From Thermoplasmatota archaeon (lineage in GTDB: Archaea; Thermoplasmatota; Poseidoniia; Poseidoniales; Thalassarchaeaceae), in assembly GCA_036154155.1 (NCBI GenBank), contig JAYZLP010000012.1:22393-86392 (forward strand): a DNA stretch of 64,000 bases, read 5' to 3'. The notes below the pieces were generated by a model, which did not search any database, was not told the origin of the DNA, and saw only the letters and a program-made list of their open reading frames with translations. This document shows, piece after piece, positions 15,009-56,209 of the stretch. A program made the translations under genes and the position numbers. Positions within the stretch are counted from its first letter, which is position 1. The number at the start of each line of letters is the position of its first letter.

Positions 15009-16811
15009 CTAGGCCTCGCCATATGAGAGGTATCTCACTAACGATCCAAAAATTACCCCCGAAACAACCAAACTCTCCTCATTGAACCTGTCCATCCTAT
15101 CTAGGTATGTGTGATATTCCGTAGAACCGGAACCATAGCACACAATCGCATTCCCGTATTCCATGCCATCGTCGGGCTCGTTATCAATCTCGTAAACGAA
15201 TGGCGCATGATCCGAATTATATGGCATCCCGCTTGAATCAATGTCTCTGATGTTGATGGCATATTTTGATGAAAGTTCAGGAAACGACTCAGAGAAGGCC
15301 TTGGAAATCCCCCTCAATGACTCGACATCAGACTTACTGTTCCCGAACATGGTCAAACCGGTGTTCCTCTCAAGATCGACGTGATTCATGTCTAGGTTCA
15401 CATACAGCCTGAGGTTCTCTCCAAGCATAGTTCTGTACTTGTCCACCCACTCTTTGGATCCCCAGAGGCCTTCCTCCTCTCCTCCCCACGTGCAGAAATA
15501 TAGGGTATGCTCTGGCTCTCCAAGTTGAGACTCAAGTATCCCAAACTGTCGAGCAATCTCCTGCAGTGTGGCGACTCCTGAGGTATCGTCCACAGCACCA
15601 GGTCCATTGTAGACTGTGTCATGGTGAGCACCCATCACTATGGCCGATTCGGTCTTGCCTTGGATGACTCCACAAGGGACACGTATGGTCGCCACCCCTT
15701 GATTATCAACATCTGTCATCATACCCAACCTTCCGTCCCCATTTATCACCATGTCAACAATTGTTTCTCCGACACTCTTTGAGACCATGATGAACCCGAA
15801 ACTGTCTGGAATGAAATCGAATTGGCTTTTGTCTACCGATTTGAAGTATGGTACGCAATCGCCCATGACCAAATCATCACAGTTCTGTTTAGCGTTAATT
15901 GTAATCATACTGTATACGTCATTTTCTATGGCCCGCTGAAGTAATGCAGTATTCCCATCTGTCCCTTCTTCGAGCCACACCATTGCTATTTTGCTTGCTG
16001 CGGAACCCCAATCAGCCTCTGAACTCCCATTGCCCAAGTCGATGATTTCCATGTTCTCGACATGACTCACCGATGCCGAGCCGCTGTATCCTTGGATGAC
16101 GAATTCTTCTCTATGAGTGAAATATGTAACTTCCCTATTCACATCCGCTCCCGAACAGGGTGTGGGCCCGCCTATCAGCCCCCCAATATCCCCGGGCACG
16201 CAAATAGACAATATCGGCTCCTCGCCAATAACAAACATTGGAACTTCGAACTCATCCATTGTCGTAGGTATCCCCGCCGAAGTAAAGTTATTTTTTATTG
16301 ATTCAGCAGCATTCAGCTCTTCTACAGTGCCTGACATTCTCCCCTCCCATTCAGGATGGCCAAGATCAACAAGAGATTGTGCATATTCCCTGACTTGGCT
16401 CTGATCGAATTCAATAAGCCTGTATTCTGGCTCTCCCTGGATCCACTCAATAATATCGTCTCCGTAGAGGAGAGCCCCTCCGGCACCGCCAACCATCAAA
16501 ACCGCTGCAACCGCGAGAACCTGCACGGGCATCTCGCGAATTCTCCCTATTCTTTTACGCACATTTTCAGGCGAGTTGTAATAGAGAATCTTCCTCAATA
16601 TCCCCTCATTTTGCGTAGATTCAGCCTCGACGACTATTTCCGCATCAATGACTTCGCTTTCTAGCATCCTCTCCACGAGTTCTGATTTGTTACCAGAAAC
16701 TGGCAAACCCCTCGATTTCAGAGCTTCTTTGAGTTCTGAAACGGTAAGCTCCGACCAATCAGAATCATCTCCCATCGGGAAATTACGACCACTCTTGACT
16801 ATTGAACCCAT
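15009..16811 (-). CDS. Membrane-anchored M28-family zinc peptidase with N-terminal SAP/Rho_N-like motif
   Basis: N-terminal LTVSELKEALKSRGLPVSGNKSELVERML matches a SAP / Rho_N helix-extended-helix motif. One TM follows (VLAVAAVLMVGGAGGALLY). The C-terminal M28 aminopeptidase core (GAHHDTVYNGPGAVDDTSGVATLQEIARQF) carries the metal ligands. Confidence 0.7.
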   Translation of the reverse strand: MGSIVKSGRNFPMGDDSDWSELTVSELKEALKSRGLPVSGNKSELVERMLESEVIDAEIVVEAESTQNEGILRKILYYNSPENVRKRIGRIREMPVQVLAVAAVLMVGGAGGALLYGDDIIEWIQGEPEYRLIEFDQSQVREYAQSLVDLGHPEWEGRMSGTVEELNAAESIKNNFTSAGIPTTMDEFEVPMFVIGEEPILSICVPGDIGGLIGGPTPCSGADVNREVTYFTHREEFVIQGYSGSASVSHVENMEIIDLGNGSSEADWGSAASKIAMVWLEEGTDGNTALLQRAIENDVYSMITINAKQNCDDLVMGDCVPYFKSVDKSQFDFIPDSFGFIMVSKSVGETIVDMVINGDGRLGMMTDVDNQGVATIRVPCGVIQGKTESAIVMGAHHDTVYNGPGAVDDTSGVATLQEIARQFGILESQLGEPEHTLYFCTWGGEEEGLWGSKEWVDKYRTMLGENLRLYVNLDMNHVDLERNTGLTMFGNSKSDVESLRGISKAFSESFPELSSKYAINIRDIDSSGMPYNSDHAPFVYEIDNEPDDGMEYGNAIVCYGSGSTEYHTYLDRMDRFNEESLVVSGVIFGSLVRYLSYGEA

Positions 16812-16837: not shown

Positions 16838-17416
16838 TTAATCCTGTGAAACTTCTTCGCCAGTCCACCTATTTCCCAACTCATGTTCCACATCTAGCTG
16901 GTCAAGTATCCTAGCAACAACAAAGTCCACTAATTCCTCGATTGTCGTTGGAGCGTGATAGAACCCGGGGTTTGCCGGAAGTATCACAACGCCCCATGAT
17001 GACATCCTTGCCATGGCCTCAAGATGAGGCGTGGACATCGGGGTCTCCCTCGGGACCAGGATCAGCTTCCTCCTCTCCTTAATTGCCACAAGGGCGCTCC
17101 TGGTGGCCAGGTTATCTGAGATTCCTGACGCTACCTTCCCTATTGTGGTTCCACTGGCGGGACAGAGGATGTATGCATCATACTTCGCCGATCCAGAAGC
17201 CGGTTTAGCAGCAAGGTTAGCATTACTATGCAAAGTAACTCCGTCGATTTCGGATAGCTCTTCTGGTTTCATCCCGCATTCAAGATCGAGATTAATGGCG
17301 CCAGCCCCTGTAACAATTAGATCTACATTCCACCCATAGTTGCTCAGTTGCTCTACTAGCCTCACTCCATACCTGGCCCCAGAGGCCCCAGTTATCGCCA
17401 CTACCGCCTCCGGCAT
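16838..17416 (-). CDS. ubiX: UbiX/Pad1-family flavin prenyltransferase-like flavoprotein
   Basis: VVAITGASGARYGVRLVEQL and LILVPRETPMSTPHLEAM match UbiX/PAD1 flavoproteins. Start set at MPEAVV; the ORF track extends to 17464. Confidence 0.7.
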   Translation of the reverse strand: MPEAVVAITGASGARYGVRLVEQLSNYGWNVDLIVTGAGAINLDLECGMKPEELSEIDGVTLHSNANLAAKPASGSAKYDAYILCPASGTTIGKVASGISDNLATRSALVAIKERRKLILVPRETPMSTPHLEAMARMSSWGVVILPANPGFYHAPTTIEELVDFVVARILDQLDVEHELGNRWTGEEVSQD

Positions 17417-17453
17417 GTATGGTGGGCCACGCCCAATGGACTTGAATGGTTTC

Positions 17454-18647
17454 CTACCTTCCAAGGATATCTTTCAATGCTTCTCCAAGGTAAATGTATT
17501 CATCTTCGTGATTGTAAAGTTGAGCAGAGATTCTGATGTATTTGGTGCCGTGATGCGTCCACGCCATCACGGGAACCTGTATCTTGAAATCGTCATACAG
17601 GGAATTGTGAATAGGATCCCCATCCATCCCTGGGGCGACAACCTCACCTTTCCATGGGAACTCAACAGCAGCTAGTGATGAAATCATAGATTCGGGAGTC
17701 GGAGGAGTCGTCCCTAAGGCCTCGCAGATAATATTCCTGCCTTTCAGGGCTAGCCTCCTGTTTCTTTCCATTATCTCTGGCCACCCTCCATCGACTAAAC
17801 CCTCCATGTATTTCAGTGCAAATGGGATACAAAGCCAAGCAGTCGGATCCTGTGTTCCCGGCCAATCGAATTCGAATCTGAACTTCTCCTGATCCGTACC
17901 TTCGCTAGAATAACCGTGACCAATATTTAGCGGTTTAATCAGGTGCTTCCTGTCTTCCCTAATGTGTAGGAACGCTGAACCCTTCGGCGTACAAATCCAT
18001 TTGTGACAGTTGCCAGTGATGTAGGCCGGCTGCAAGTCGGAGATGTCTATCTCAACAATGCCGGGACCGTGAGCCGCATCAAGAAGGACATCAACACCCC
18101 TTCCCTGAATTTTCTTAACCAATTTTTCGAATGGCATTCTCAGTCCCGTGGGGCTAGTCACCGTATCTATCATCACTAGGACAGTCCTATCGGTTATGGC
18201 ACCCATAACGAGATTGACAATCTCTTCTTCGCTTTCCACCCTGAATGGGATGTCAACAACCACTGTTTTGGCCCCTGATCTAGAGGTAACGTAGTCAACA
18301 GCGTTCCAACACGCTTGGTATGCATGATTTGGAACAATAATTTCGTCCCCCCTTTCCAGATCCAAGGATCTCAGAATCGTATTGACGCCGGCGGTGGCAT
18401 TTGTGACAAATGCCATCCCGTCGGGATCGGCATTCATGAATTCGGAGATTGCAATTATGGATTCCCACCAAAGGTCGCGGCTTACCCTCTCGACGAATAA
18501 TACAGGATCGTCCTCCATCAGTCTTCTGAGTCTATTTTGTTCCTCCAATACAGCAATCGGTGTCGCTCCGAATGAACCATGGTTCAGAAATACGGTTTCT
18601 TCATCGAGGCCCCAGTGGCTGGATAAGTCCCCCTTCTTAGGAATCAT
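17454..18647 (-). CDS. PLP-dependent class V aminotransferase (isopenicillin-N-epimerase / cysteine-desulfurase-like)
   Basis: FLNHGSFGATP N-terminal signature and fold-type I length. Start set at MIPKKGD, giving a 4-nt overlap with lipB. Confidence 0.65.
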   Translation of the reverse strand: MIPKKGDLSSHWGLDEETVFLNHGSFGATPIAVLEEQNRLRRLMEDDPVLFVERVSRDLWWESIIAISEFMNADPDGMAFVTNATAGVNTILRSLDLERGDEIIVPNHAYQACWNAVDYVTSRSGAKTVVVDIPFRVESEEEIVNLVMGAITDRTVLVMIDTVTSPTGLRMPFEKLVKKIQGRGVDVLLDAAHGPGIVEIDISDLQPAYITGNCHKWICTPKGSAFLHIREDRKHLIKPLNIGHGYSSEGTDQEKFRFEFDWPGTQDPTAWLCIPFALKYMEGLVDGGWPEIMERNRRLALKGRNIICEALGTTPPTPESMISSLAAVEFPWKGEVVAPGMDGDPIHNSLYDDFKIQVPVMAWTHHGTKYIRISAQLYNHEDEYIYLGEALKDILGR

Positions 18648-19324
18648 GCCAATACTTCCGGAGTCCAATTTTCAGGCTTCATTGGGGCCCTTTTCAGAAA
18701 TTCCTCGCAGGTTTCAAGCAAAGCCTCTTCGAACCGGAGAATGTCCAGGGGCTCTCCAGATTCATCATGCGTGTATCCAAGCTGGTGCAGACTTGTATGG
18801 GTCCCCCTTGTCATCCCACAACCTTCCAGATCCTCAACCCTGGAGCCGGGAGTATCGACATTAATCGACATGCCATGCCGACTAACCCAGTGCAAAAATG
18901 ACAGACCGATTGAACAGACTTTGTACCCATCTACCCAGGCTCCTTGCATTGACGGATCTTTGTAGGACTCAACACCGCATTCCCCCATAGCGGCAATGGA
19001 CCAGTCCTCCAGTATTCCGATGATTTTCCTGACGCTCTGCTCCCCTACTTCCCACTTAATGATGGGGTAAACCACCAACTGGCCGGGCCCATGCCAGGTT
19101 ATCCCCCCTCCTCTATCAGTCTCTGTTGTAGGGTAGCCATCAACTTCGACCCCATCCCTCCTGGCCTTTGGCCCTATGGTTACAACCTCGGGGTGCTCTA
19201 CAATGATGAGTGTATCCGGAATTTTATCCTCAATCCTTTCTTTCTGGAGCTCCTTCATGGCCTTTGAAACAAGGGAATGCTCGACCATCCCAGCTCTGAG
19301 GACCCTAATCTTCCTCATTGCCAA
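18644..19324 (-). CDS. lipB: Octanoyltransferase (lipoyl(octanoyl) transferase LipB)
   Basis: VEHPEVVTIG...RGGGITWHGPGQLVVYPI matches the LipB catalytic region. Confidence 0.8.
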   Translation of the reverse strand: MAMRKIRVLRAGMVEHSLVSKAMKELQKERIEDKIPDTLIIVEHPEVVTIGPKARRDGVEVDGYPTTETDRGGGITWHGPGQLVVYPIIKWEVGEQSVRKIIGILEDWSIAAMGECGVESYKDPSMQGAWVDGYKVCSIGLSFLHWVSRHGMSINVDTPGSRVEDLEGCGMTRGTHTSLHQLGYTHDESGEPLDILRFEEALLETCEEFLKRAPMKPENWTPEVLA

Positions 19325-19327
19325 ACC

Positions 19328-20764
19328 TCATGCCGAATGTATGGCGTGTCCAAGAGTCTTCAATACGCTCTCGTGGAAAGCCTCTGCCATTGTCGGGTGA
19401 GCGTGGACAGTTTCTGCAATGTCCTCCAATAGTGCGCCCATCTCCAAGGCCAGAACGAATTCCCCATGGAGCTCGGCCACATGACTGCCTACTGCCTGAA
19501 TTCCTAATATCACATGATCAGATTCTCTAGCCACAACTCTGACAAAACCCCCTGTCTTTTCCGCCTCGAGAGTTAGGGCTCTACCATTAGCAGCTAATGG
19601 GAACTTGCCGATAATTACGGACTCCCCCCTCTCTTCAGCCTCCTCTGGGAGGAGCCCAACAGAAACCACCTCTGGCTCGGTGAAGACGATAGCGGGAATT
19701 GAGATTTTGTCAAACTCCCTGTCAAGGCCGGAGATGATCTCCGCCACCATTTCGCCCTGTGCGCTAGCCTTGTGAGCCAGCATTGGCTCCCCAGAGACGT
19801 CCCCTATTGCATAAACTCCGGGAACATTAGTCCTACACTTCCTGTCTATCCTGATGAATCGCCCCGACGCATCCATCCTAACACCGGTCTTTTCTAGGCC
19901 CCAGTCACTCGTGTTCGGCTTCCTTCCAACCGTTACCAATATCTTGTCGACCTTCAGGGTGTGTTCCTCACCTTCCTTTTCGAACTTCAACTCGACCTTT
20001 TTCGAGGCTCCCTTGCCCTTAACTTCAGCCCCTCTGGCGAGGGACTTAGTATGAACGACAACCCCGTGCTTCTTTAGCCAAATTTCCAAGGGCCTCCTCA
20101 ATTCCTTGTCAAATATCCCAAGTATGCTATCCATGCCCTCCACGACAGTAACTTGAGAACCCAGTTTGGCCAGTGCGCAACCCAGCTCTAGGCCGATGTA
20201 TCCACCCCCGACAATGGCCACCTTTTTTGGCAGATTCTTGAGGTCCAGCGCCCCGGTTGAAGATAGAATGAATTCTTCATCACAAGGCATGAAAGGCAGG
20301 TCAATATGACTCGACCCAGTGGCTAGTATGACATTTTCAGCCTCAATTTCAATGGTGCCTTCTGAGGTTTCCACTGAGCACCTCTTGGGTGTTGTGAAAT
20401 TAGCCCAGCCCTTCAATAGTTCAACCCCCGCTCCCTTCAATAACGACTCAACACCTTTGTTTAGTCGCTCAACAATTCCATCCTTCCATGAAACCATGGC
20501 TGACATGTCCAGCATCGGCCCTTCAGTAACCGAGATGCCCATATGCCCTCCTTCCGATGCGTGCTGACTCAGGGACTCGAAACGCTCAGCAGCGTGAATC
20601 ATTGCCTTACTGGGGATACATCCTCTGATCAGACAAGTTCCTCCTGCCTTGTCTCCTTCAACAACTATCGTGTCCAGTCCCAGTTGACCAGATCTGATTC
20701 CAGCAACATAGCCACCTGGTCCAGCGCCGACGATGAGAACCTGACATTTTCTTAATTCAGCCAT
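19328..20764 (-). CDS. lpdA: Dihydrolipoamide dehydrogenase (E3)
   Basis: FAD motif VLIVGAGPGGYVAG and redox-active disulfide GGTCLIRGCIPSK. Length 478 aa. Confidence 0.9.
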   Translation of the reverse strand: MAELRKCQVLIVGAGPGGYVAGIRSGQLGLDTIVVEGDKAGGTCLIRGCIPSKAMIHAAERFESLSQHASEGGHMGISVTEGPMLDMSAMVSWKDGIVERLNKGVESLLKGAGVELLKGWANFTTPKRCSVETSEGTIEIEAENVILATGSSHIDLPFMPCDEEFILSSTGALDLKNLPKKVAIVGGGYIGLELGCALAKLGSQVTVVEGMDSILGIFDKELRRPLEIWLKKHGVVVHTKSLARGAEVKGKGASKKVELKFEKEGEEHTLKVDKILVTVGRKPNTSDWGLEKTGVRMDASGRFIRIDRKCRTNVPGVYAIGDVSGEPMLAHKASAQGEMVAEIISGLDREFDKISIPAIVFTEPEVVSVGLLPEEAEERGESVIIGKFPLAANGRALTLEAEKTGGFVRVVARESDHVILGIQAVGSHVAELHGEFVLALEMGALLEDIAETVHAHPTMAEAFHESVLKTLGHAIHSA

Positions 20765-20773
20765 GTTTAATCC

Positions 20774-22060
20774 TCACATGAAGATCAAGGCAGGATGCTC
20801 GAGCATCCTCTTTAGGTGCTGAATCAGCCTCGCGCCATCAGCCCCATCAACCACCCTGTGGTCGAACGAGCTTGACAAATTCATTATTCTCCGGACAACT
20901 ATCTGCCCACCTCTGGCCACCGGCATATCCCTTGCTTTGTGGACTCCTAGTATCGACATCTCGGGGTGGTTGATTATTGGAGTGGCACCAAGGCCACCCT
21001 CCCTTCCAAGACTCGTAATGGTGAATGTCGAACCCGTCAGGTCATCCAGACTTGCCGTGCCGTCTCTAGCTGCCCCTGAAACTCTGATTAGCTCACTGGC
21101 TGCATTCCATATGTCTAGGGACTCAACATGCTTAACGACAGGTACGTACAGTCCGCGATCGGTCTGAGTAGCAATTCCAAGATTGACCGCTGAATGCCTG
21201 TGCACAACTCCTGACTCGTCGTAGAAGTGGCCATTGCATTCCGGGTGTTCGGGCATAATCTTGGATAGTGCCAGCATGATGAATGGCAGATATGTCAGCT
21301 TCGGCTGTTCCGGGGTCCTGCTCGAATTCAGCATCTGACGTAACTCTTCAAGCTCAGTAACATCCACCTCCTCGAAATACGAGAAATGGGGAATGGAGAA
21401 GGCACTCTTAACCATCTGCTCTGAAATCTTCCTCCTAAGTCCCACGACCTTGACCTCGGTTACATCCGTTCTCTTAGTTGAATAGGCAGCTGGGGCAGCT
21501 CCCATCACCGCTCCTCCGCCAGCTAGGAATGCATCAATGTCAGCATGGCGAATCCTTCCAGCTGGGCCGCTACCATTGAGGCTAGACAACTCCACTCCCG
21601 ACTCCCGGGCCCTCCTACGCACCGCAGGACTAGCCAAAATAGCCCCGCCCTTCTTCTTGGTAGCAGCAGGGGCCTTGATCTCTGGAGCTGGAGGGGATAT
21701 CACCGGGGGTGCCGGCTCAGGGGCCCTTTCCACGGGCTCTGGTTCCGCAACGGGGACCTCCACTGGCTCCTCAGCCACCTCCTCCTCGACCTCCTCTGGC
21801 TTAACCTGGTTTCCCTCAGAATCGAATTCAACCAAGGTAGTTCCAACTGCTATCATATCCCCTACTTCACCACTCAGCGAGGAAACTATGCCATCAGTGG
21901 GGGACGGTATGGTCACTGTCGCTTTGTCCGTCATTACATCCACAAGAGGATCGTCCTCGGATACCTTGTCGCCCACGGAAACATGCCATGTTACAACTTC
22001 TCCCTCAACTACTCCCTCTCCAATATCTGGGAGCTTGAAATCGTAGTTTCCCATGCTCAT
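20774..22060 (-). CDS. Dihydrolipoamide acyltransferase (E2) of a 2-oxoacid dehydrogenase complex
   Basis: Lipoyl domain, Pro/Ala/Glu linker, E3-binding domain and catalytic SFDHRVVDGA motif. Start set at MSMGNYDFKLPDIGEG, whose ATG overlaps the E1-beta TGA (ATGA). Confidence 0.85.
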   Translation of the reverse strand: MSMGNYDFKLPDIGEGVVEGEVVTWHVSVGDKVSEDDPLVDVMTDKATVTIPSPTDGIVSSLSGEVGDMIAVGTTLVEFDSEGNQVKPEEVEEEVAEEPVEVPVAEPEPVERAPEPAPPVISPPAPEIKAPAATKKKGGAILASPAVRRRARESGVELSSLNGSGPAGRIRHADIDAFLAGGGAVMGAAPAAYSTKRTDVTEVKVVGLRRKISEQMVKSAFSIPHFSYFEEVDVTELEELRQMLNSSRTPEQPKLTYLPFIMLALSKIMPEHPECNGHFYDESGVVHRHSAVNLGIATQTDRGLYVPVVKHVESLDIWNAASELIRVSGAARDGTASLDDLTGSTFTITSLGREGGLGATPIINHPEMSILGVHKARDMPVARGGQIVVRRIMNLSSSFDHRVVDGADGARLIQHLKRMLEHPALIFM

Positions 22061-23067
22061 TCCTCCTGCGTCCTCGCGATCGCCGCGGCTATCCTGTCCG
22101 GTCCGGGCATGTAATCCCATTCAGTAGTATGGGGAAAAGGTGTGTCCCAACCCGTCACTCTTTCAATTGGCGACTCAAGGCTCCAGAAACATCTTTCTTG
22201 TATGGAAGCTGCCATTTCTGCCCCAAAACCGCTGGTTTTTGGAGCCTCGTGTACAATTACACAACGCCCAGTCTTCGTTATTGACTTCTCAATCGCTTCC
22301 CTGTCCCAAGGAACTAGGGTTTGAAGGTCTATTAGATCGCAGGAAATGCCACTATCTTTGATCGCCTGCTCGCAAACATGCACCATGGCGCCCCACGCAA
22401 TGACTGTGCAATCCTCGCCCTCAATCGCCAGACGCGCTTCCCCAAGTGGGACTGAATAGTGAGACTCAGGAACCTCGGCCTCCGGATGACCACTCCAGGT
22501 CGGAACATTGTGGGGATCCCCATAGAACGGCCCTCTGTAGCATCTCTTTGGCTCAAAGAAAATTACAGGGTCGTTGTCTTCAATTGCACTGATTAGGAGC
22601 CCCTTCGCGTTGTATGGTGTCGAGCAATAGACTACTTTGAGGCCCGGGGTGTGAGTGAATTGCGCTTCCGGGGACTGTGAGTGGTGATGTCCGCCCCTAA
22701 TTCCCCCTCCTGCTGGTGTCCTAATGGTGACTGGGCACCAGAACTCTCCCCCCGACCTGTGCCTGATCTTTGCCATCTCGTTTACAATCTGATCATAGGC
22801 AGGGAAGATGTAGTCTGCAAACTGAATTTCCACAACTGGTCGCAGTCCATTGATGCCCATCCCAAAGGCAGTAGCCGCAATCCCCCCCTCTGAGAGGGGA
22901 GAGTCGAAAACACGGTGCTTGCCGAACTTCTCCTGAAGGCCATCAGAAGTTCTGAATACCCCTCCGAAGTACCCTACGTCTTCCCCGAAAATGATTACAT
23001 CATCATCATTTGAAAGCATGGTGTCTAGGGCGCTGTTCACCGACTCAACCATATTCATGTTAGGCAT
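22057..23067 (-). CDS. 2-oxoacid dehydrogenase E1 component beta subunit
   Basis: Transketolase-like pyrimidine-binding and C-terminal domains (VIIFGEDVGYFGGVFRTSDGL...). Start at MPNMNM overlaps the E1-alpha stop (TAATG). Confidence 0.85.
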   Translation of the reverse strand: MPNMNMVESVNSALDTMLSNDDDVIIFGEDVGYFGGVFRTSDGLQEKFGKHRVFDSPLSEGGIAATAFGMGINGLRPVVEIQFADYIFPAYDQIVNEMAKIRHRSGGEFWCPVTIRTPAGGGIRGGHHHSQSPEAQFTHTPGLKVVYCSTPYNAKGLLISAIEDNDPVIFFEPKRCYRGPFYGDPHNVPTWSGHPEAEVPESHYSVPLGEARLAIEGEDCTVIAWGAMVHVCEQAIKDSGISCDLIDLQTLVPWDREAIEKSITKTGRCVIVHEAPKTSGFGAEMAASIQERCFWSLESPIERVTGWDTPFPHTTEWDYMPGPDRIAAAIARTQEE

Positions 23068-24308
23068 TATTCGTCCCTCCACTTCTTCATCTCGTCCCAT
23101 TGCTCTACTAGGTGCCATGGGGGACTCTCGTAGACTTCAGTGAAGATGGCGTCCGATGAGGGGTAAGGGCCATTTGCAAGATCGCCGAATTTTACTGCCT
23201 CTTTGTAAGCACTCATGACCTCCGAGTCTAGCCTCTCAGATAATTCCGCGTGATCTTCCTCAGACCATTCCTCGATACTAATTAGGTGGTCTTTCAACCT
23301 CTCAATTGGGTCTCCTCCCGGCCAATGCTCGTTTTCGTCCTGGGGCCTGTATCTGGATGGGTCGTCACTGCTGCTATGGGCCCCTGCTCGGTAGGTTAGA
23401 ACCTCTATGTGTGTAGCGCCCAGTCCCCTGGATGCCCTCTCTCTAGCCCACCTAGTTACTGAAAATAGTGCTAGGAAGTCATTCCCGTCAACCCTGATGC
23501 TTGGTATTCCGTAAGGTATGCCCCGGATGGCGAAATTTTGCAAACCGCTAGCGAAGTTACTGTGGGTCGAGATTGCCCATTGATTGTTTACAATGTTTAG
23601 AATTACGGGAGCTTTGAATATGCCAGCAAAATTCAGTGCGTAATGATAGTCGCCCTCTGCACTGGCCCCGTCCCCAATCCATGTAATTGTGACCTCATCA
23701 AGCTCCTTGTACCTAGAGGCCAGAGCAACACCTACTGCCTGGCTGAACTGAGTCCCGACGGGGCTTGAGACGGAGATGAACCTCCCTTCCTTGTAGGTGT
23801 AGTGGACCGGCATTTGCCGCCCCTTCACGTTATCCTTCTCGTTACCAATGCAATGGCAAATCATGCTTACCATGTCACGCCCCCTGACGAACTGAGCGCC
23901 GGGTTGCCGGTACGTAGGGAACAACCAATCCTGATTCTCCAGGGCCATTGTTTGTGCAATTGCCACTGCCTCCTCGCCAAAAGACCTCATGTAGAATGAA
24001 AGCTTGCCAGTACGCTGCATTTTCATCATCCTGTCGTCGAAAATACGTAGTCTCAGCATATGCTCAAGGCCCATTCTCAACTCTTCGGCAGAAAGCTCCG
24101 GATTCCACTTTCCTGAGGCACTGTTGTCGTCCCCCAGAACTCTGACTAGCCCCGTCGCATGACCCGAAGAATCCTCAGCCGAGCAATCGATCTCTAGCAT
24201 CTCGAGATCTTCCGGCTTCCAAGGCCAGTCTGCAAACTCCGCATCTTCTCCTGGCCTATGCGGCGCATCCGGGATATGTAGGGGGATGTCAGAATTGTCT
24301 TCGCCCAT
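23067..24308 (-). CDS. 2-oxoacid dehydrogenase E1 component alpha subunit (TPP-dependent)
   Basis: TPP-binding motif GDGASAEGDYHYALNFAG. Length 413 aa. Confidence 0.85.
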   Translation of the reverse strand: MGEDNSDIPLHIPDAPHRPGEDAEFADWPWKPEDLEMLEIDCSAEDSSGHATGLVRVLGDDNSASGKWNPELSAEELRMGLEHMLRLRIFDDRMMKMQRTGKLSFYMRSFGEEAVAIAQTMALENQDWLFPTYRQPGAQFVRGRDMVSMICHCIGNEKDNVKGRQMPVHYTYKEGRFISVSSPVGTQFSQAVGVALASRYKELDEVTITWIGDGASAEGDYHYALNFAGIFKAPVILNIVNNQWAISTHSNFASGLQNFAIRGIPYGIPSIRVDGNDFLALFSVTRWARERASRGLGATHIEVLTYRAGAHSSSDDPSRYRPQDENEHWPGGDPIERLKDHLISIEEWSEEDHAELSERLDSEVMSAYKEAVKFGDLANGPYPSSDAIFTEVYESPPWHLVEQWDEMKKWRDE

Positions 24309-24330
24309 GCTTCAATCACTCTCTCCTTGC

Positions 24331-25389
24331 TCATATTGTTTGGGTTTGGCCAATCTGATTTGTCTTCAGGTAGCTTACGGCTGAACCAGTCGACTCCCTT
24401 GTTACTACGGGTTCCCCACCTTTCGCCTCTTCCCAAAGCAGCCCCGCCCTGTAACTGGACCTAACTAGAGGTCCACTGGCAACAGCACTGAATCCCATTT
24501 CCCTAGCTTCCTTGTCCCATTTCGCGAATGTTGAGGGTTCGGGAAACCTGTCCACCTGGAGGTGTCTGTCGCCAGGCTGAAGGTACTGGCCTAGGGTAAT
24601 CATGTCCACTCCTGCAGAACGAAGCCTCATCATCGCTTCGGAAATCTCCTCGTCCGTTTCACCTAGGCCCACCATAATGCTGCTCTTTGTCAGGATGTCC
24701 GGCCTAATTCTCTTAGCCTCCATGAGGATGGAAATGGACTGTTCGAATGAAGCCCTGGGGTCTCTGACAACTGAGTCTAGCCTAGGCACACACTCAACGT
24801 TGTGCGCAAACACCTTCAGGGGCAGACCATCTAGTAGCATAGCAAGCGATTCTAAGTCCCCATCTAGGTCGGAAGAAAGCAATTCCAGCCCGACATCAGG
24901 AGACTTCTCATTAATGGCTTTGATACATTCAGCGTAATGATTCGCACCACCATCTGGCAGGTCATCCCTGTTCACAACAGTAATCACCGCGTGGCTCAAG
25001 CCCATTCTACTGACTGCATCCGCCAGAGAATCTGGCTCTGAAGGATCAAGTGGAGGGGGATTCTTAGCCGTGTCAATGGCACAGAACCTGCAACCACGAG
25101 TACAAATATCTCCAGCAATCATGAATGTCGCGGTGCCCCTGCCCCAACAGTCGTGAACATTAGGGCACCTAGCCTCTTCACAAACTGTATTCAGACCATT
25201 CTCAACTACCTGACTCTTTGTCTCATTGTACCTTACTTGGGAGGTGCCAACCGGGAGTGAAGTTTTGAACCACTTAGGCAGCCTCTTTCTCTCCCTAGAT
25301 CTCCTGGATTCTCTTTCTTCGGAGGGCACCGAGCCACATCCCATAGCACTATCCGCGGCATCCCTGACGAGTGGCAGGCGAGTGGCCAT
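24331..25389 (-). CDS. lipA: Lipoyl synthase
   Basis: Radical-SAM CTRGCRFCA motif plus the N-terminal auxiliary cluster motif CEEARCPNVHDCW. Confidence 0.9.
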   Translation of the reverse strand: MATRLPLVRDAADSAMGCGSVPSEERESRRSRERKRLPKWFKTSLPVGTSQVRYNETKSQVVENGLNTVCEEARCPNVHDCWGRGTATFMIAGDICTRGCRFCAIDTAKNPPPLDPSEPDSLADAVSRMGLSHAVITVVNRDDLPDGGANHYAECIKAINEKSPDVGLELLSSDLDGDLESLAMLLDGLPLKVFAHNVECVPRLDSVVRDPRASFEQSISILMEAKRIRPDILTKSSIMVGLGETDEEISEAMMRLRSAGVDMITLGQYLQPGDRHLQVDRFPEPSTFAKWDKEAREMGFSAVASGPLVRSSYRAGLLWEEAKGGEPVVTRESTGSAVSYLKTNQIGQTQTI

Positions 25390-25490
25390 CAGTTCCTTCG
25401 GATGGAGGTACGAAATTAACCATTCTCATGAGGGCCTCCTTGAGCCCGCCAAGAACAACCCGTAATAGGGGTGTGTTTCCTCGGGGCATC

Positions 25491-26252
25491 ATGTCTGGTG
25501 GCACCGTAGTTGTGACGGGCGGAGCAGCAAGGATAGGGAAGCATATCTCCTTGGCGCTGGCTAAGAGCGGTTTCTCAGTAGCAGTCCACTATTTTTCTTC
25601 CGAAAATGAAGCTAAGGAACTAGTATCGGAGATACAATCATCAGGTGGAAATGCCACTCACATACAGAGCGATTTGTCAAACCCCAAGTCAGCATCTGAG
25701 ATAATTTCCATTGCCGAGAATTCATTGGGCCCAGTCACCGGTCTAATCAACAATGCATCCATGTTTTCCCATGACGATATTACTACCATTTCGGAAGATT
25801 CATGGGCAGGTCACATGGAAGTCAATGCCCTCTCGCCAATATTGCTTATCGGGGAATTAGTTAGAAGATTGCCCGATGGAAATGGCGGCTCCATCGTTAA
25901 CATACTCGATCAGAAGGTCGCCCAGCCCAATCCAGATCATCTTTCGTATACTGCGTCAAGATTTGCGATGCTGGGAGTAACTGAGGCTTTAGCTAGGGGG
26001 TTGGCACCGAGAGTACGAGTCAACGCAGTGGCACCGGGTCACACGTTGCCTAGTTCTGAGCAGACCCAGGCGGGTTTCTCTAGGGCACAATCCGAGTCCC
26101 CGCTTGGATTTGGCCCCAGTCCGGATGACATAGCAGATGCCGTTGTATTCCTGATGAGCTCAAGGTCCATCACCGGCCAGACTATTTTCGTAGACTCGGG
26201 AGAGAGGTTTCTATCCCGAAAGAGAGACGTATTTTTCGAAACGGAGGGATAG
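25491..26252 (+). CDS. Short-chain dehydrogenase/reductase, pteridine reductase (FolM/PTR1)-like
   Basis: VVVTGGAARIGKHISLALAKSGFSVAVHY matches the FolM/PTR1 TGxxxRIG...V..HY signature. Start set at MSGGTVVV; the ORF track extends to 25371. Confidence 0.65.
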   Translation: MSGGTVVVTGGAARIGKHISLALAKSGFSVAVHYFSSENEAKELVSEIQSSGGNATHIQSDLSNPKSASEIISIAENSLGPVTGLINNASMFSHDDITTISEDSWAGHMEVNALSPILLIGELVRRLPDGNGGSIVNILDQKVAQPNPDHLSYTASRFAMLGVTEALARGLAPRVRVNAVAPGHTLPSSEQTQAGFSRAQSESPLGFGPSPDDIADAVVFLMSSRSITGQTIFVDSGERFLSRKRDVFFETEG

Positions 26253-26253
26253 G

Positions 26254-26658
26254 TTGAATTCACACACCGAGGCTCTCAGGGAGTTAGTAAGATCAGGGTC
26301 CAAAGAGTTCACCACTCTGTTTCTGGAGAACTCCGTCAGAGAGGTCGATATCGGGGTTCACGAGCATGAGATTGGAAACCCTCAGAAGATAAGTTTCGAT
26401 CTGTACGTAGTCATGGATGGCGCCTCCAAGCCGAAGGAAGACCAGATTGACATGGTTCTCGATTATGAGTTTCTTTCTTCTTCAATCGATAGAGTCGTTT
26501 CCAGAAGGAGGAGCGCCCTCATGGAGACGCTTGCATCCGAGCTGTTGAATGAGATAATGTCACCAGGAGAAATCGTCGCTGCCACAGTATCGCTGAAGAA
26601 GCTAGAAGTTGTCGGAATTGACGGCGAGTTAGGTTGCTCGATGACACGCATCAGGTGA
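26254..26658 (+). CDS. folB: Dihydroneopterin aldolase family protein (FolB/FolX-like)
   Basis: About 130 aa with the FolB pattern (LENSVREVDIGVHEHEIGNPQKISFDLYV...DYEFLSSSI...LASELLNEI). Lies immediately downstream of the FolM-like SDR. Confidence 0.6.
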   Translation: MNSHTEALRELVRSGSKEFTTLFLENSVREVDIGVHEHEIGNPQKISFDLYVVMDGASKPKEDQIDMVLDYEFLSSSIDRVVSRRRSALMETLASELLNEIMSPGEIVAATVSLKKLEVVGIDGELGCSMTRIR

Positions 26659-26659
26659 T

Positions 26660-26745
26660 TGGTGCAGAGGGCAGGATTCGAACCTGCGAAGCACTTTGCA
26701 CCGGAGCTTAAGTCCGGCCCCTTTGACCAACTCGGGTACCTCTGC
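26660..26745 (-). tRNA. tRNA-Leu(UAA): tRNA-Leu (anticodon UAA), class II with long variable arm, CCA encoded
   Basis: Reverse complement reads GCAGAGG-TA-CCC-GAGTTGGTCAAA-GGG-G-CCGGA-CTTAAGC-TCCGG-(long extra arm)-GCAGG-TTCGAAT-CCTGC-CCTCTGC-A-CCA. There is a 7-bp acceptor stem, anticodon loop CUUAAGC, a GGTTCGAATCC T-arm and discriminator A. Confidence 0.85.
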
Positions 26746-26862: not shown

Positions 26863-29796
26863 GTGTATGCGAGCAGCATAGCGAATAGCGCGTCCCGCCG
26901 TTTCAGGCTGGCTCTGGCACTTTCCCTGCTGATGTTGATGCCCTTTGGCATGCTTTCCAACCATCAATCAGAGCTTCCAGAAGAAGTCAGGATGGAAGCA
27001 GGCTCCGATGTCCAGTTGAACCTCTATACAATGTATTTCGCTTCCCAGAATTCTTCCGCAGGCGGCGATGGTTACATCACAACACAGGTTCCCGAGTCAG
27101 GTGGCCAAGAGTCGATGAGCGCCCTAGACAGCAGCATAGAGTTCCGAACTAGTCCGATGCTGTCGTCTTTAGATGTAGCCGGACGCCCCAATCATGGCTC
27201 CGGCTCCGGATCTTACTACCTGCCACTGGGGCTATTCATGAGGGCGACAGGCCCTGACACTTCCTCTGTGGAGTGGACAATTACACTCAAGTCATCAGGT
27301 AGCCAAGTCGGTTCGGTTTCTTGGAGCACTGATGCATGCAATCCAGGGCTAACTCAGAGCTGTAGTTTCGACCATGAGACATTTGAAATCGACTTAGGGA
27401 ACGACCAGAGATTCACCATAGACAAGGACGAGCGCCTCGAGCTAATCGTCGATGCCGATATGTCTGGTTGTGACAGTAGCGGAAGCCCATTCGGCTCTAG
27501 TTGCGAGGCCGAGGTGGCATGGAATGAGATAGACGGCGACGACAGATTCAGCACCCTGGAGATCGAGGCAAATGCAATATCCAACAGTCTCGTTCTCCTA
27601 CAGAGGGAGGGTGCAGAGCTCGCAGAGGGGCCAGAGTTGGAATGGTTTCCGAATGACATCCTGTCTGAGAGGGTTATGCAGTTCTCTTTCGATGTCAAGA
27701 GCAGTTTTGGCAGGTATGACGTAGACTCGGTAAGGCTATTGATGCGGGATCCCGACGGAATGTACCGGATAGACCACGTAATTGATGAGGACGACGAGGA
27801 AATAGAGGACACAAGCCAAGGCATCTTTGGAGAGTACCTCTGGTCATACCCTAGCGGCATCCCCTCTGGAGAATATTCCGTCGAACTCGAGGTTTCTGAC
27901 ATCCAAGGTAATAGCGTCATAATCGAGCACGAACCCGTGACAATGGAGCAGTGGGGAGTTGCATTGAACCACAGGTTGGATCGAACTACAGAATACATAG
28001 CCCCCGGCCAAACAACCCCGGTTCCACTGCAACTAGTTCACAGGGGAGACTCCACGAAGTCGATGGACGTGGAGTTAGAGGTCCTCACAAACTTCCCAAG
28101 CTCTTGGTTGCTAGAATTCGACTCACCAGGCGGATACACACTCAATGCTGGAGGCGATATTCTGAATCCAATACTCACTCTTACCGCACCCGAGGATCTT
28201 ACAGGTGCCCCAGGCTCCATAGACATCAGAGCCGTTGCAGAAGCAGAGGTCGACGGCGTACTTACCGTTGTTCACCAGGACACCCTTCAGATTGACTTGG
28301 AGAAGATTGACGTTTACCAACCTCCTCAAGTATCCATATGGTCAGAAGACCACGACATCCCAATAGCAAACTCTTCACGCCCCGATGACATTGACTCAAC
28401 CATTCCCAGGTATGTCGACTACGACCAATTCACTCCATTCCTTCTTGAGATTTTCAACACCGGTTTCGATGCTGACACATTCAGGATCGACGTACTACAA
28501 AGATCCAAGTCAATCATTCACGTGTACGATAATGACACTGGCCAGAGAATTCTGGAGGACGAAGGTGACGGCACTTTCCATACGGCTCTCTTGGATAGAC
28601 ACGACACTCAAACGCTGAGGCTGATGATCAAGCCCTCGGCTGACAGAGAAGACCCCGACATCGGCCCGGTCGAGATAGAGGTGGTGAGCTCAGGAAACGC
28701 CTCTCTTAGATCCACGGTACTATTCACTATCCAACGCACATTTGGAATAAGGGCCGAGGTTTCCTATGACTGCGATGGTTCACCACTTGGCCACATCAGG
28801 GTTTCTCTTTGCGACCCCGGACCAGGAAACGCGGAAGTCTCCCTAAGGGCAAAGATCACCAATACGATGACATCCGGGGAATCCGCCACATGGTGGAGGA
28901 TCCAGAATCCAGCTTCATTGGATGATAACACCGATAGAAACGCCGCCTACGGGCAGTGGCAATTCCGGATCGAGGACTCGTCGGGTAATGCCGTCCCCAG
29001 GGTCTCTCTTGCCCCCGGCGACGAAACCGAGGTATTCGTGACCATCACTCTGACAAATCAGGTAGAGTTTGGCAATCACACAGTTTACCTCAGAATAGTT
29101 GAAGATACCACTGATGACGATGCCAAGTACTTCGATCTGCCAATGGTGTTTGAGATTGATCCCGATGACCCCAACTTGGAAATCGTACAAGTAACGCCCA
29201 ATAGACTTCTAGTCCCGGGGGAGTCTTATCCTATCCAGATGAAGGTCAAGAACTTGGGCAATAGCCCCCTCACAGTTCTCTTGGAGGCTGAAGTTGACGG
29301 GACCGGTTGGTCCGTTGACATCGATGGCCCATCGGGATCGGTTCTGATAGTGCTTGGTGCATTCGAAGAAGTCACATTCGTATTGGACGTTAACGTACCC
29401 GACTCTGCAAACAATGGCGAGACCGTAGATGTCCTAGTTTCGGCAACCCCATTCGACACGCAGCAGAGCTGGCCCGATGATGCTACGGCAGAGAAGACCG
29501 TTGTGATGAGGGTAGGTATTTCGTCACTAATTGACAGACTTGTAAACGAGATTACACACCCCCGACTTTCAACCTACATCGTGGGAATAGTTGCAGCAAT
29601 GCTACTCATCGCAGGAATCCAAGGCGCTATGAACAGGAGAAGGTGGAAGGCGCATATGGCATATTTAGATGCAATTTCCAGTGATTCAGACGAGGATTTG
29701 GAAGATGAAGAAGACGATGATTTACCCGCTCCAGTTGTGTCGATAGAAGAGGAAGAGGACGATGTATACGAGGATGACGACATCGAACTGGTTTGA
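26863..29796 (+). CDS. Large (977 aa) secreted type-I membrane surface protein with CARDB-like domains and poly-acidic cytoplasmic tail
   Basis: Signal peptide (LALALSLLMLMPFGML), long Asp/Thr/Ser-rich ectodomain, single C-terminal TM (IVGIVAAMLLIAGIQGAM). Tail is DSDEDLEDEEDDD...EEEEDDVYEDDDIELV. Confidence 0.6.
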   Translation: MYASSIANSASRRFRLALALSLLMLMPFGMLSNHQSELPEEVRMEAGSDVQLNLYTMYFASQNSSAGGDGYITTQVPESGGQESMSALDSSIEFRTSPMLSSLDVAGRPNHGSGSGSYYLPLGLFMRATGPDTSSVEWTITLKSSGSQVGSVSWSTDACNPGLTQSCSFDHETFEIDLGNDQRFTIDKDERLELIVDADMSGCDSSGSPFGSSCEAEVAWNEIDGDDRFSTLEIEANAISNSLVLLQREGAELAEGPELEWFPNDILSERVMQFSFDVKSSFGRYDVDSVRLLMRDPDGMYRIDHVIDEDDEEIEDTSQGIFGEYLWSYPSGIPSGEYSVELEVSDIQGNSVIIEHEPVTMEQWGVALNHRLDRTTEYIAPGQTTPVPLQLVHRGDSTKSMDVELEVLTNFPSSWLLEFDSPGGYTLNAGGDILNPILTLTAPEDLTGAPGSIDIRAVAEAEVDGVLTVVHQDTLQIDLEKIDVYQPPQVSIWSEDHDIPIANSSRPDDIDSTIPRYVDYDQFTPFLLEIFNTGFDADTFRIDVLQRSKSIIHVYDNDTGQRILEDEGDGTFHTALLDRHDTQTLRLMIKPSADREDPDIGPVEIEVVSSGNASLRSTVLFTIQRTFGIRAEVSYDCDGSPLGHIRVSLCDPGPGNAEVSLRAKITNTMTSGESATWWRIQNPASLDDNTDRNAAYGQWQFRIEDSSGNAVPRVSLAPGDETEVFVTITLTNQVEFGNHTVYLRIVEDTTDDDAKYFDLPMVFEIDPDDPNLEIVQVTPNRLLVPGESYPIQMKVKNLGNSPLTVLLEAEVDGTGWSVDIDGPSGSVLIVLGAFEEVTFVLDVNVPDSANNGETVDVLVSATPFDTQQSWPDDATAEKTVVMRVGISSLIDRLVNEITHPRLSTYIVGIVAAMLLIAGIQGAMNRRRWKAHMAYLDAISSDSDEDLEDEEDDDLPAPVVSIEEEEDDVYEDDDIELV

Positions 29797-42092: not shown

Positions 42093-44889
<2,797 letters not shown>

Positions 44890-56137: not shown

Positions 56138-56190
56138 CAGAGTCAAATTTGGTTTTCGTAACCCACTTGAACGTTCGCCCCATATTCTCA

Positions 56191-56209
56191 CTCAGACCTA
56201 CGGTCTGAG
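56191..56209. promoter_or_regulatory. 8-bp inverted repeat (CTCAGACC-TAC-GGTCTGAG) followed by ATATAT in the divergent region between the giant surface-protein gene and the rpoE operon
   Basis: Read directly: ctcagacc tac ggtctgag, then catatatc. Confidence 0.3.

Follow-up and report, generated by a model that had tools for sequence, protein, structure and literature searches.

Whether an archaeon can encode a lipoate-dependent 2-oxoacid dehydrogenase complex (OADHC) and the means of making its lipoyl cofactor in one operon, and on which 2-oxoacids such a complex would act, is the question raised by a locus in contig JAYZLP010000012.1 of a Thermoplasmatota archaeon of the family Thalassarchaeaceae (assembly GCA_036154155.1). 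The stretch that was analysed, hereafter the window, comprises 64,000 nucleotides (positions 22,393 to 86,392 of the contig), and six intact open reading frames (ORFs) on its minus strand fill window positions 25389 to 18644 in the order lipA, E1alpha, E1beta, E2, E3, lipB. The host is a Marine Group II (MGII) archaeon (Ca. Thalassarchaeaceae), in whose chromosome the locus forms an operon. With the operon, the lipoylation route and the type of E1 judged jointly as a single explanation, there is good confidence that it encodes a lipoate-dependent OADHC of branched-chain type together with both enzymes that make its cofactor in place.

Gene content of the locus and its host

A previous reading of the window, made from the sequence only, had proposed an operon in which a full E1alpha/E1beta/E2/E3 set has lipA on its upstream and lipB on its downstream side, a proposal borne out by the ORFs and by their Pfam and NCBIfam family matches (Table 1). 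The sequence-only reading had also named two possible flaws, a frameshift in a subunit gene and an E2 devoid of its lipoyl lysine. No frameshift was found in any of the six genes, the family models are covered essentially at full length except in the LipB match, and E2 has the lipoyl motif TDKA; with all reading frames intact and all diagnostic motifs present, the locus has neither flaw.

LipA passes the equivalog model TIGR00510 (382.3 bits; cut-off 310.25) and contains the CX4CX5C motif CEEARCPNVHDC at residue 70, the radical-SAM CX3CX2C motif CTRGCRFC at residue 96 and a C-terminal RSSY at residue 310, the first and the last of these providing ligands of the auxiliary cluster; the M-x-x-RLP start of lipA is kept in relatives. 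LipB passes TIGR00214 (103.8 bits; cut-off 83.55) with a match that stops at position 163 of the 187-position model, and it scores under the cut-offs of four further LipB models. The protein consists of PF21948 alone, a single catalytic domain with no LplB or LplA-C accessory domain. Its RGG loop (R69-G70-G71), HGPGQ motif, Lys133 and Cys167 are invariant among 13 homologues, and Lys133 and Cys167 align with the catalytic lysine and the PCG cysteine of LipB from Thermus thermophilus (2QHT). LipB and LipA had been described as fused into the operon, which is right in that they are co-operonic and wrong if a fusion of proteins is meant. On a 1017-nt ENA contig, a 297-aa call (P0260) joins a LipB domain, 93% identical to LipB of the Marine Group III (MGIII)-type locus L012, to acyl-CoA dehydrogenase C-terminal domains; this joint call could be either a gene-calling artefact of the short contig or a real fusion.

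Table 1. Genes and putative promoter elements of the locus (window coordinates)
Feature	Position	Strand	Basis
TATA-like box GGTTAAT, 25 nt upstream of lipA ATG	25415..25421	-	putative archaeal promoter of a leaderless mRNA
lipA, lipoyl synthase, 352 aa	24331..25389	-	TIGR00510; motifs; exact NCBI protein MEC7743928.1 'lipoyl synthase'
E1alpha, thiamine diphosphate (ThDP)-dependent 2-oxoacid decarboxylase alpha, branched-chain 2-oxoacid dehydrogenase (BCKDH) type, 413 aa	23067..24308	-	PF00676, 3.8e-91
E1beta, 336 aa	22057..23067	-	PF02779 and PF02780 (transketolase Pyr and C domains)
E2, dihydrolipoyl acyltransferase, 426 aa (428 aa from alternative ATG 22060)	20774..22054	-	PF00364, PF02817, PF00198
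E3, dihydrolipoyl dehydrogenase, 478 aa	19328..20764	-	TIGR01350, 486.5 bits (cut-off 408.8)
lipB, octanoyltransferase, 224 aa (extendable to TTG 19324)	18644..19318	-	TIGR00214; catalytic residues; public 224-aa calls
AT5, class-V-fold pyridoxal phosphate (PLP) enzyme, Egt2 / C-DES / 'isopenicillin-N epimerase' subgroup, 397 aa	17454..18647	-	PF00266, 73.7 bits
Spacer motif AACCATT(C/G)AA(G/T), 23-24 nt before UbiX ATG	17441..17451	-	fixed distance in all aligned Marine Group IIb loci
UbiX-family flavin prenyltransferase	16838..17416	-	TIGR00421, 176.8 bits (cut-off 108.9)

The remaining four genes encode a complex of the class with heterotetrameric E1, having separate E1alpha and E1beta, an E2 with DKA and DHRxxDG motifs and an E3 with CxxxxC. 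The ThDP motif of E1alpha, GDG-X26-NN, is at residue 212. E2 has one lipoyl domain (PF00364), one peripheral subunit-binding domain (PF02817) and the catalytic domain (PF00198), with TDKA at residue 44, which makes Lys46 the lipoyl lysine, and the catalytic DHRVVDG at residue 400 in the numbering of the 428-aa form. E3 has the redox motif CLIRGC at residue 44, two GxGxxG motifs, and HAHPTMAE, containing the His-Glu dyad, at residue 454.

The host assignment is consistent at every level. The proteins of the window are 96-100% identical to those of the metagenome-assembled genome (MAG) 'Euryarchaeota archaeon UBA438', exact copies are deposited at NCBI under the consecutive accessions MEC7743928 to MEC7743922, and homologues of LipB carry the names Ca. 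Thalassarchaeaceae, Thermoplasmatota or Euryarchaeota. The flanks of the window contain archaeal housekeeping genes (eRF1, class-I LysRS, ArgRS, NOG1, XPD), and GC content is even along its whole length.

Substrate class of the complex

It had been stated that the specificity of the complex, for pyruvate or for branched-chain 2-oxoacids, could not be read from the sequence, which was too pessimistic: both E1 subunits clearly represent the branched-chain (2-oxoisovalerate dehydrogenase) type, and the class of substrate is partly readable. When compared with solved structures, E1alpha scores 405 bits with the 2-oxoisovalerate dehydrogenase alpha subunit of Pseudomonas putida, 239 with human BCKDH, 208 with the Thermus enzyme, 189 with Geobacillus pyruvate dehydrogenase (PDH) and 116 with human PDH, while the corresponding scores of E1beta are 450 (P. 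putida BCKDH beta), 351 (human BCKDH), 336 (Thermus), 296 (Geobacillus PDH beta) and 187 (human PDH beta). E1alpha and BkdA1 of P. putida share 47.8% identity over 400 aa, in a full-length alignment that begins at residue 7, at the P. putida N-terminus, and includes the N-terminal LH(I/V)P..RPG. Among 1.84 billion representatives its best match (48% identity, 374 bits) is an alpha subunit named '3-methyl-2-oxobutanoate dehydrogenase' by NCBI, the representative of a 50% cluster; members of the 90% cluster of the window E1alpha are named '3-methyl-2-oxobutanoate dehydrogenase subunit alpha', and those of the 90% cluster of E2 are named 'branched-chain alpha-keto acid dehydrogenase subunit E2' (NCBI and JGI names). 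The E1alpha N-terminal domain of 2-oxoisovalerate dehydrogenases (PF12573, OxoDH_E1alpha_N; cut-off 25 bits) is recognised in the orthologues of two MGIII-type loci, L012 (58.9 bits) and L090 (38.4 bits).

The NCBIfam models of PDH proteins, on the other hand, stay under their cut-offs with all three subunits compared: E1alpha scores 335 with TIGR03181 (cut-off 411) and 203 with TIGR03182 (cut-off 394), E1beta 262 with NF006667 (cut-off 321) and 243 with NF008854 (cut-off 454), and E2 322 with NF008814 (cut-off 722) and 291 with TIGR01348 (cut-off 552). A 2-oxoglutarate dehydrogenase complex was also considered and rejected, as E1 here consists of two subunits, alpha and beta, instead of a single large SucA, and the SucB models give 236-253 bits against cut-offs of 379-449.

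Because E1 is of the 2-oxoisovalerate dehydrogenase type, 2-oxoacids derived from valine, leucine and isoleucine are the most likely main substrates, an assignment that is predicted here with fair confidence. Such substrates would fit the peptide and amino acid heterotrophy of these organisms: according to the MGII literature, branched-chain amino acid transporters are present and highly transcribed in Marine Group IIb (MGIIb), and pdhA and pdhC transcripts of one MGIIb genus have been detected in situ at differential abundance. An ELFV-family dehydrogenase at 43525-44889 on the plus strand was considered as a leucine or valine dehydrogenase that might feed the complex, but the bacterial model of NADP-specific glutamate dehydrogenases (NF006929, 734 bits; cut-off 536) identifies it as one of these, which leaves such feeding unsupported. 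With the archaeal GdhA model this protein scores only 214 bits (cut-off 750), and it is probably another bacterial-type gene in an archaeon.

Several observations weigh against the branched-chain assignment. The N-terminal 100 aa of the window E1alpha do not match PF12573 in a Pfam comparison at E<=10. The whole E2 scores highest with Geobacillus PDH E2 (299 bits), and the E2 catalytic domain alone gives 178 bits with PDH E2 and 126 with bovine BCKDH E2, in a comparison that included no proteobacterial BCKDH E2 structure. Archaeal complexes can be promiscuous, and the characterised one of Thermoplasma accepts pyruvate as well as branched-chain 2-oxoacids. The MGII literature labels these genes pdhA and pdhC, in automated, KEGG-style fashion. 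The similarity of E2 to PDH E2, the acceptance of pyruvate in Thermoplasma and the labels would suit a complex that is primarily a pyruvate dehydrogenase, linking glycolysis or alanine catabolism to the tricarboxylic acid cycle, with the lip genes in the same cofactor role; so would the best NCBIfam matches by score, which are PDH models, and the lack within the window of an alternative pyruvate-oxidising enzyme. However, every PDH equivalog model stays under its curated cut-off for E1alpha, E1beta and E2, both E1 subunits score about 1.5- to 2-fold higher with BCKDH than with PDH structures, the BCKDH-specific N-terminal domain is found in orthologues of E1alpha, and the cluster members are named BCKDH by both NCBI and JGI. 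Pyruvate is accordingly unlikely to be the main substrate, and a primary role as a PDH is as unlikely; some activity of the branched-chain-type complex on pyruvate, as in Thermoplasma, may nevertheless occur.

Two characterised systems are instructive. The bkdA1-bkdA2-bkdB-lpdV operon of P. putida, whose gene order is E1alpha-E1beta-E2-E3 as in the window, likewise encodes a heterotetrameric E1 (E1b structures 1QS0/2BP7) and an E2 with a single lipoyl domain; the locus of the window differs in its archaeal host, in having lipA and lipB within the operon, and in the gene for a PLP-dependent, C-S-lyase-like protein that is coupled downstream. The OADHC of Thermoplasma acidophilum, also a member of the Thermoplasmatota, is likewise encoded by a four-gene E1alpha-E1beta-E2-E3 operon with the same domain architecture, but Thermoplasma lipoylates by ATP-dependent salvage with LplA-N and LplA-C encoded elsewhere, whereas the window has only LipB and LipA, inside the operon. 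Bacterial BCKDH is a much closer match to the window proteins than is Thermoplasma E2, the structure of which (3RQC) gives 122 bits with the E2 catalytic domain.

Junctions, promoters and conservation of the operon

The gene junctions were read directly from the sequence and compared with nine related loci. The TAATG overlap of the E1alpha stop and the E1beta start at 23069-23065, pointed out in the sequence-only reading, does exist: its ATG (MPNMN...) corresponds by homology to the place where E1beta begins in relatives, which keep M-x-x-M-N, and GGAGG lies 8 nt upstream of this ATG. An ATGA overlap of E1beta with E2 at 22060-22057 had also been claimed. The letters are there, but in most relatives E2 begins 0-2 nt past the E1beta stop with M-[GS]-x-x-x-F-K, and the homologous start here is ATG 22054 (MGNYDFK), 7 nt after AGGAGG at 22067-22062; of the two public calls, NCBI gives the 426-aa form and JGI the 428-aa form. 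The junction pattern of relatives and the NCBI call make ATG 22054 the most likely start of E2, with a gap of 2 nt after E1beta instead of an overlap. As for the other gaps, said to be 3-22 nt, those of lipA-E1alpha (22 nt) and E2-E3 (9 nt) are within that range, whereas 3 nt between E3 and lipB would require the TTG at 19324; relatives and public calls have lipB begin at ATG 19318, most likely the true start, which gives a gap of 9 nt. One junction had been missed altogether: the TGA of lipB overlaps the ATG of the next gene, AT5, as ATGA at 18647-18644. Packing is tight in all relatives, and which junctions overlap differs: lipA and E1alpha overlap by 4 nt in L004, and in L090 and L091 both lipA/E1alpha and E3/lipB do so.

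A single strand, overlapping or very short spacers and conservation of this layout in relatives are what is expected of an operon, and the putative control elements point the same way. The sequence GA(A/G)AAyGGTTAAT(g/t)TCG, which contains the TATA-like box, is conserved, always equally far from the ATG of lipA, in the window, L001, L007-L011 and L013, with the variant GATTAAC in L004; the divergent gene on the other side of lipA, which encodes a protein of the short-chain dehydrogenase/reductase (SDR) family, has a GGTAA(A/T)A box about 25 nt in front of it; and the motif before UbiX is equally fixed in position (Table 1). These three boxes suggest archaeal TATA-like promoters with leaderless mRNAs. 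Oligo-T terminator tracts were sought between the genes and none was found in any spacer, the only two T5 runs being within coding sequence. In the UbiX spacer motif, AACCATTC is the reverse complement of GAATGGTT inside the lipA box; the two elements may be TATA-like promoters, sites of a shared regulator, or alike by coincidence.

Transcription would probably start at the TATA-like box that precedes the ATG of lipA by about 25 nt, producing a leaderless mRNA, and the transcript would probably run through at least the seventh gene, AT5, with overlapping or 2-22-nt junctions that favour coupled translation. With TATA-like boxes before lipA and before UbiX, the lipA-to-AT5 unit is predicted to be separate from UbiX, which is probably a transcription unit of its own; the spacer motif before UbiX is a possible internal promoter at the 3' end of the lipA-to-AT5 unit.

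The arrangement was followed in 18 Poseidoniia loci (L001-L013 and L087-L091), and the order lipA-E1alpha-E1beta-E2-E3-lipB is identical in all 18. In the 15 of MGIIb type the conserved block is larger, consisting of lipA through lipB followed by AT5, UbiX and a SAP/M28 peptidase gene, with the SDR and FolB genes divergent from lipA, and it remains identical at LipB identities down to 62%. In the three loci of MGIII type (L012, L090, L091) the six-gene core is kept, and AT5 and UbiX are gone; LipB of L012, the only MGIII-type locus for which this comparison was made, is 47% identical to that of the window.

This conservation bears on whether lipA and lipB just happen to adjoin the OADHC genes, separately transcribed for general lipoylation (for example, also of GcvH) and not parts of one regulated unit. 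In the MGIIa-L1 genome a distance of about 20 kb separates LipB from LipA, and the linkage of lip genes with the OADHC is therefore not obligatory within the order. Yet the gene order is the same in 18 of 18 loci, down to 47% LipB identity, the spacers are of 0-22 nt or are replaced by overlaps such as those of L090 and L091, no operon spacer contains an oligo-T tract, and the sole conserved TATA-like boxes of the gene row are those before lipA and before UbiX, so that mere neighbourhood is very unlikely.

Nor is the linkage unique to this lineage, since the same order or variants of it occur in bacteria. Two Gemmatimonadales loci (L023, L048) have exactly the lipA-E1alpha-E1beta-E2-E3-lipB order, variant arrangements occur in Myxococcota, Desulfobacterota and Planctomycetota, and E3-E2...lipB-lipA is common in Actinomycetota; lip genes adjoin those of E2 or E3 in many loci of Actinomycetota, Myxococcota and Desulfobacterota. 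In six bacterial loci (L023, L048, L016, L019, L056, L044), lipA and/or lipB directly adjoin E1, E2 or E3 genes. The component proteins of the two Gemmatimonadales loci are about 28-41% identical to their counterparts in the window (E1 and E2 about 28-37%, LipB 32-35%), these loci lack AT5, and their E1 and E2 belong to a different lineage, probably of PDH type; the order that they share with Poseidoniia is either convergent or very old. A locus of Myxococcota (L044), in which LipA, E2 and E3 are 52%, 45% and 47% identical to those of the window, was considered as a donor-like operon and rejected, its E1 genes being rearranged or fragmentary (lipA - E1beta-like - E2 - short E1alpha-like - E3 - tmk - lipB). 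The arrangement is thus the norm of the archaeal lineage, conserved across Poseidoniia, and is also found in some bacteria.

It is extremely improbable that the operon came into an archaeal contig as bacterial DNA, by an error of assembly or binning: all of its components look bacterial in type and one identical E1beta entry at NCBI is labelled 'Acidimicrobiaceae bacterium', but many independent contigs of up to 343 kb from different samples have this cluster flanked by the same archaeal genes (eRF1, ArgRS, NOG1, SAP-M28 peptidase), GC is uniform across the window, and the closest bacterial LipB is at most 37% identical. The entry with the bacterial label, MBD26144.1 (P0573), belongs to the same 90% cluster as the window E1beta, and its probable source is an MGII contig that was placed in a bacterial MAG by mis-binning. 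An origin of the operon by ancient transfer from bacteria is likely, one by contamination is not.

Lipoylation route and the gene coupled to lipB

The statement that archaeal OADHC operons usually pair with LplA, contained in the sequence-only reading, applies to Thermoplasma, which uses LplA, but not to Halobacteriales, which were assigned the octanoyltransferase LipM in the survey of Borziak 2014. That survey of archaea found LipM/LipB in 53 species, slightly more than the 50 with LplA, and LipB was the rarest system, present in nine species and always accompanied by LipA and E2. The supplementary table of Tanabe 2023, a survey of GTDB genomes, lists LipA and LipB in Poseidoniales. In the part of the table available for this analysis, none of four MGIIb-O3 genomes has an entry for LplA, LipM or LipS; three of the four have both LipA and LipB, and the fourth has LipA and one weak, generic match to the Lpl/Lip/BPL family. 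One of these genomes is flagged 'LipAB', its LipA and LipB being five gene numbers apart, the same spacing as in the window, and in the same part of the table it is the sole MGIIb-O3 genome with both genes on one contig.

LipB would move an octanoyl group onto Lys46 in the single lipoyl domain of E2, and LipA, which is one of the radical-SAM enzymes and sacrifices an auxiliary 4Fe-4S cluster, would insert two sulfurs to yield lipoyl-E2. The ThDP-dependent E1alpha2beta2 would then decarboxylate a 2-oxoacid and reductively acylate the lipoyl arm, E2 would pass the acyl group to CoA, and E3 would re-oxidise the dihydrolipoamide with NAD+. The source of the octanoyl group deserves attention, and Tanabe 2023 raised the question of the LipB donor in archaea that have no acyl carrier protein (ACP). 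Because archaea generally lack ACP and the available part of the Tanabe table has no lipoate ligase in MGIIb genomes, the donor is probably octanoyl-CoA. LipB of Escherichia coli uses octanoyl-CoA efficiently (Km 12 uM), and MGII genomes encode enzymes of fatty acid degradation. A search of the MGII literature found nothing specific on ACP or Fab genes, pyruvate:ferredoxin oxidoreductase or this operon, and no separate PDH, pyruvate:ferredoxin oxidoreductase, ACP or AcpS, or GcvH is encoded within the 64-kb window.

The 4-nt overlap of lipB with AT5 occurs in the window, L007 and each of the seven further MGIIb loci in which the junction was read, taking the form GTGA in L010; as called, the overlap is 4 nt in L088 and L089 and 11 nt in L087. 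The AT5 gene is not present in the MGIII-type loci or in any of the sampled bacterial lipB neighbourhoods. Source databases name the protein 'aminotransferase class V-fold PLP-dependent enzyme' or 'isopenicillin-N epimerase', and its best solved relatives are the hercynylcysteine-sulfoxide C-S lyase Egt2 (143 bits) and the cysteine/cystine lyase C-DES of Synechocystis (55 bits), SufS reaching only about 33 bits; the PLP lysine Lys216, Asp190 and His193 are invariant. It was considered as a cysteine desulfurase of the SufS/IscS/NifS kind and rejected, scoring 63.7 bits with the SufS subfamily model (cut-off 475) and far under the cut-offs of the other desulfurase models.

A speculative and unlikely extension of the lipoylation route is that AT5 releases persulfide or sulfide from cysteine or cystine with which the auxiliary 4Fe-4S cluster of LipA, destroyed in every turnover, is rebuilt, while LipB takes octanoate from octanoyl-CoA, so that the operon would form a self-sufficient module to make and use lipoate in an ACP-free archaeon. 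If this were true, AT5 would be a dedicated sulfur-supply partner of lipoyl synthase, of a kind hitherto undescribed.

UbiX always follows AT5 in MGIIb and is not downstream in the MGIII-type loci. Downstream of UbiX in all MGIIb loci (15009-16811, minus strand, in the window) is a gene for an odd fusion of domains, an M28 peptidase with a SAP DNA-binding motif at its N-terminus. On the other side of lipA, at 25371-26658 on the plus strand, are the divergent gene for a pteridine-reductase-like SDR (NF006597, 287 bits) and the gene for a FolB dihydroneopterin aldolase, both syntenic in all MGIIb loci; the GTG start listed for the SDR at 25371, which overlaps lipA, is an artefact of the ORF finder, the conserved start being ATG 25491 (MSGGTVVV). 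Elsewhere the window has very large ORFs at 26863-29796 (plus strand, 977 aa), 29870-38833 (plus strand, 2987 aa) and 50507-56191 (minus strand, 1894 aa), of which the 977-aa product is acidic and has no Pfam match, a signal-peptide-like N-terminus and a C-terminal membrane anchor. ARAGORN and Rfam detect a single RNA gene in the window, a tRNA-Leu(TAA) at 26660-26745 on the minus strand.

The locus is of an already known kind: all of its genes have been deposited at NCBI and JGI under these names, and the LipA/LipB pair has been tabulated by Tanabe 2023. The archaeal LipB/LipA pairs of Borziak 2014 and Tanabe 2023 consist of the same two enzymes, of which the window holds another instance, but the texts of those surveys discuss neither intervening OADHC genes nor a coupled PLP enzyme. 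What is added here is the BCKDH type of E1, the question of the octanoyl donor, and the coupling of AT5 to lipB across MGIIb. The branched-chain type of E1 corrects the 'pyruvate dehydrogenase' label in the MGII literature and points to catabolism of valine, leucine and isoleucine in these archaea; the operon is a compact and highly conserved test case for the octanoyl donor of LipB in archaea that lack ACP; and the conserved coupling of AT5 with lipB provides a concrete lead for experiment.

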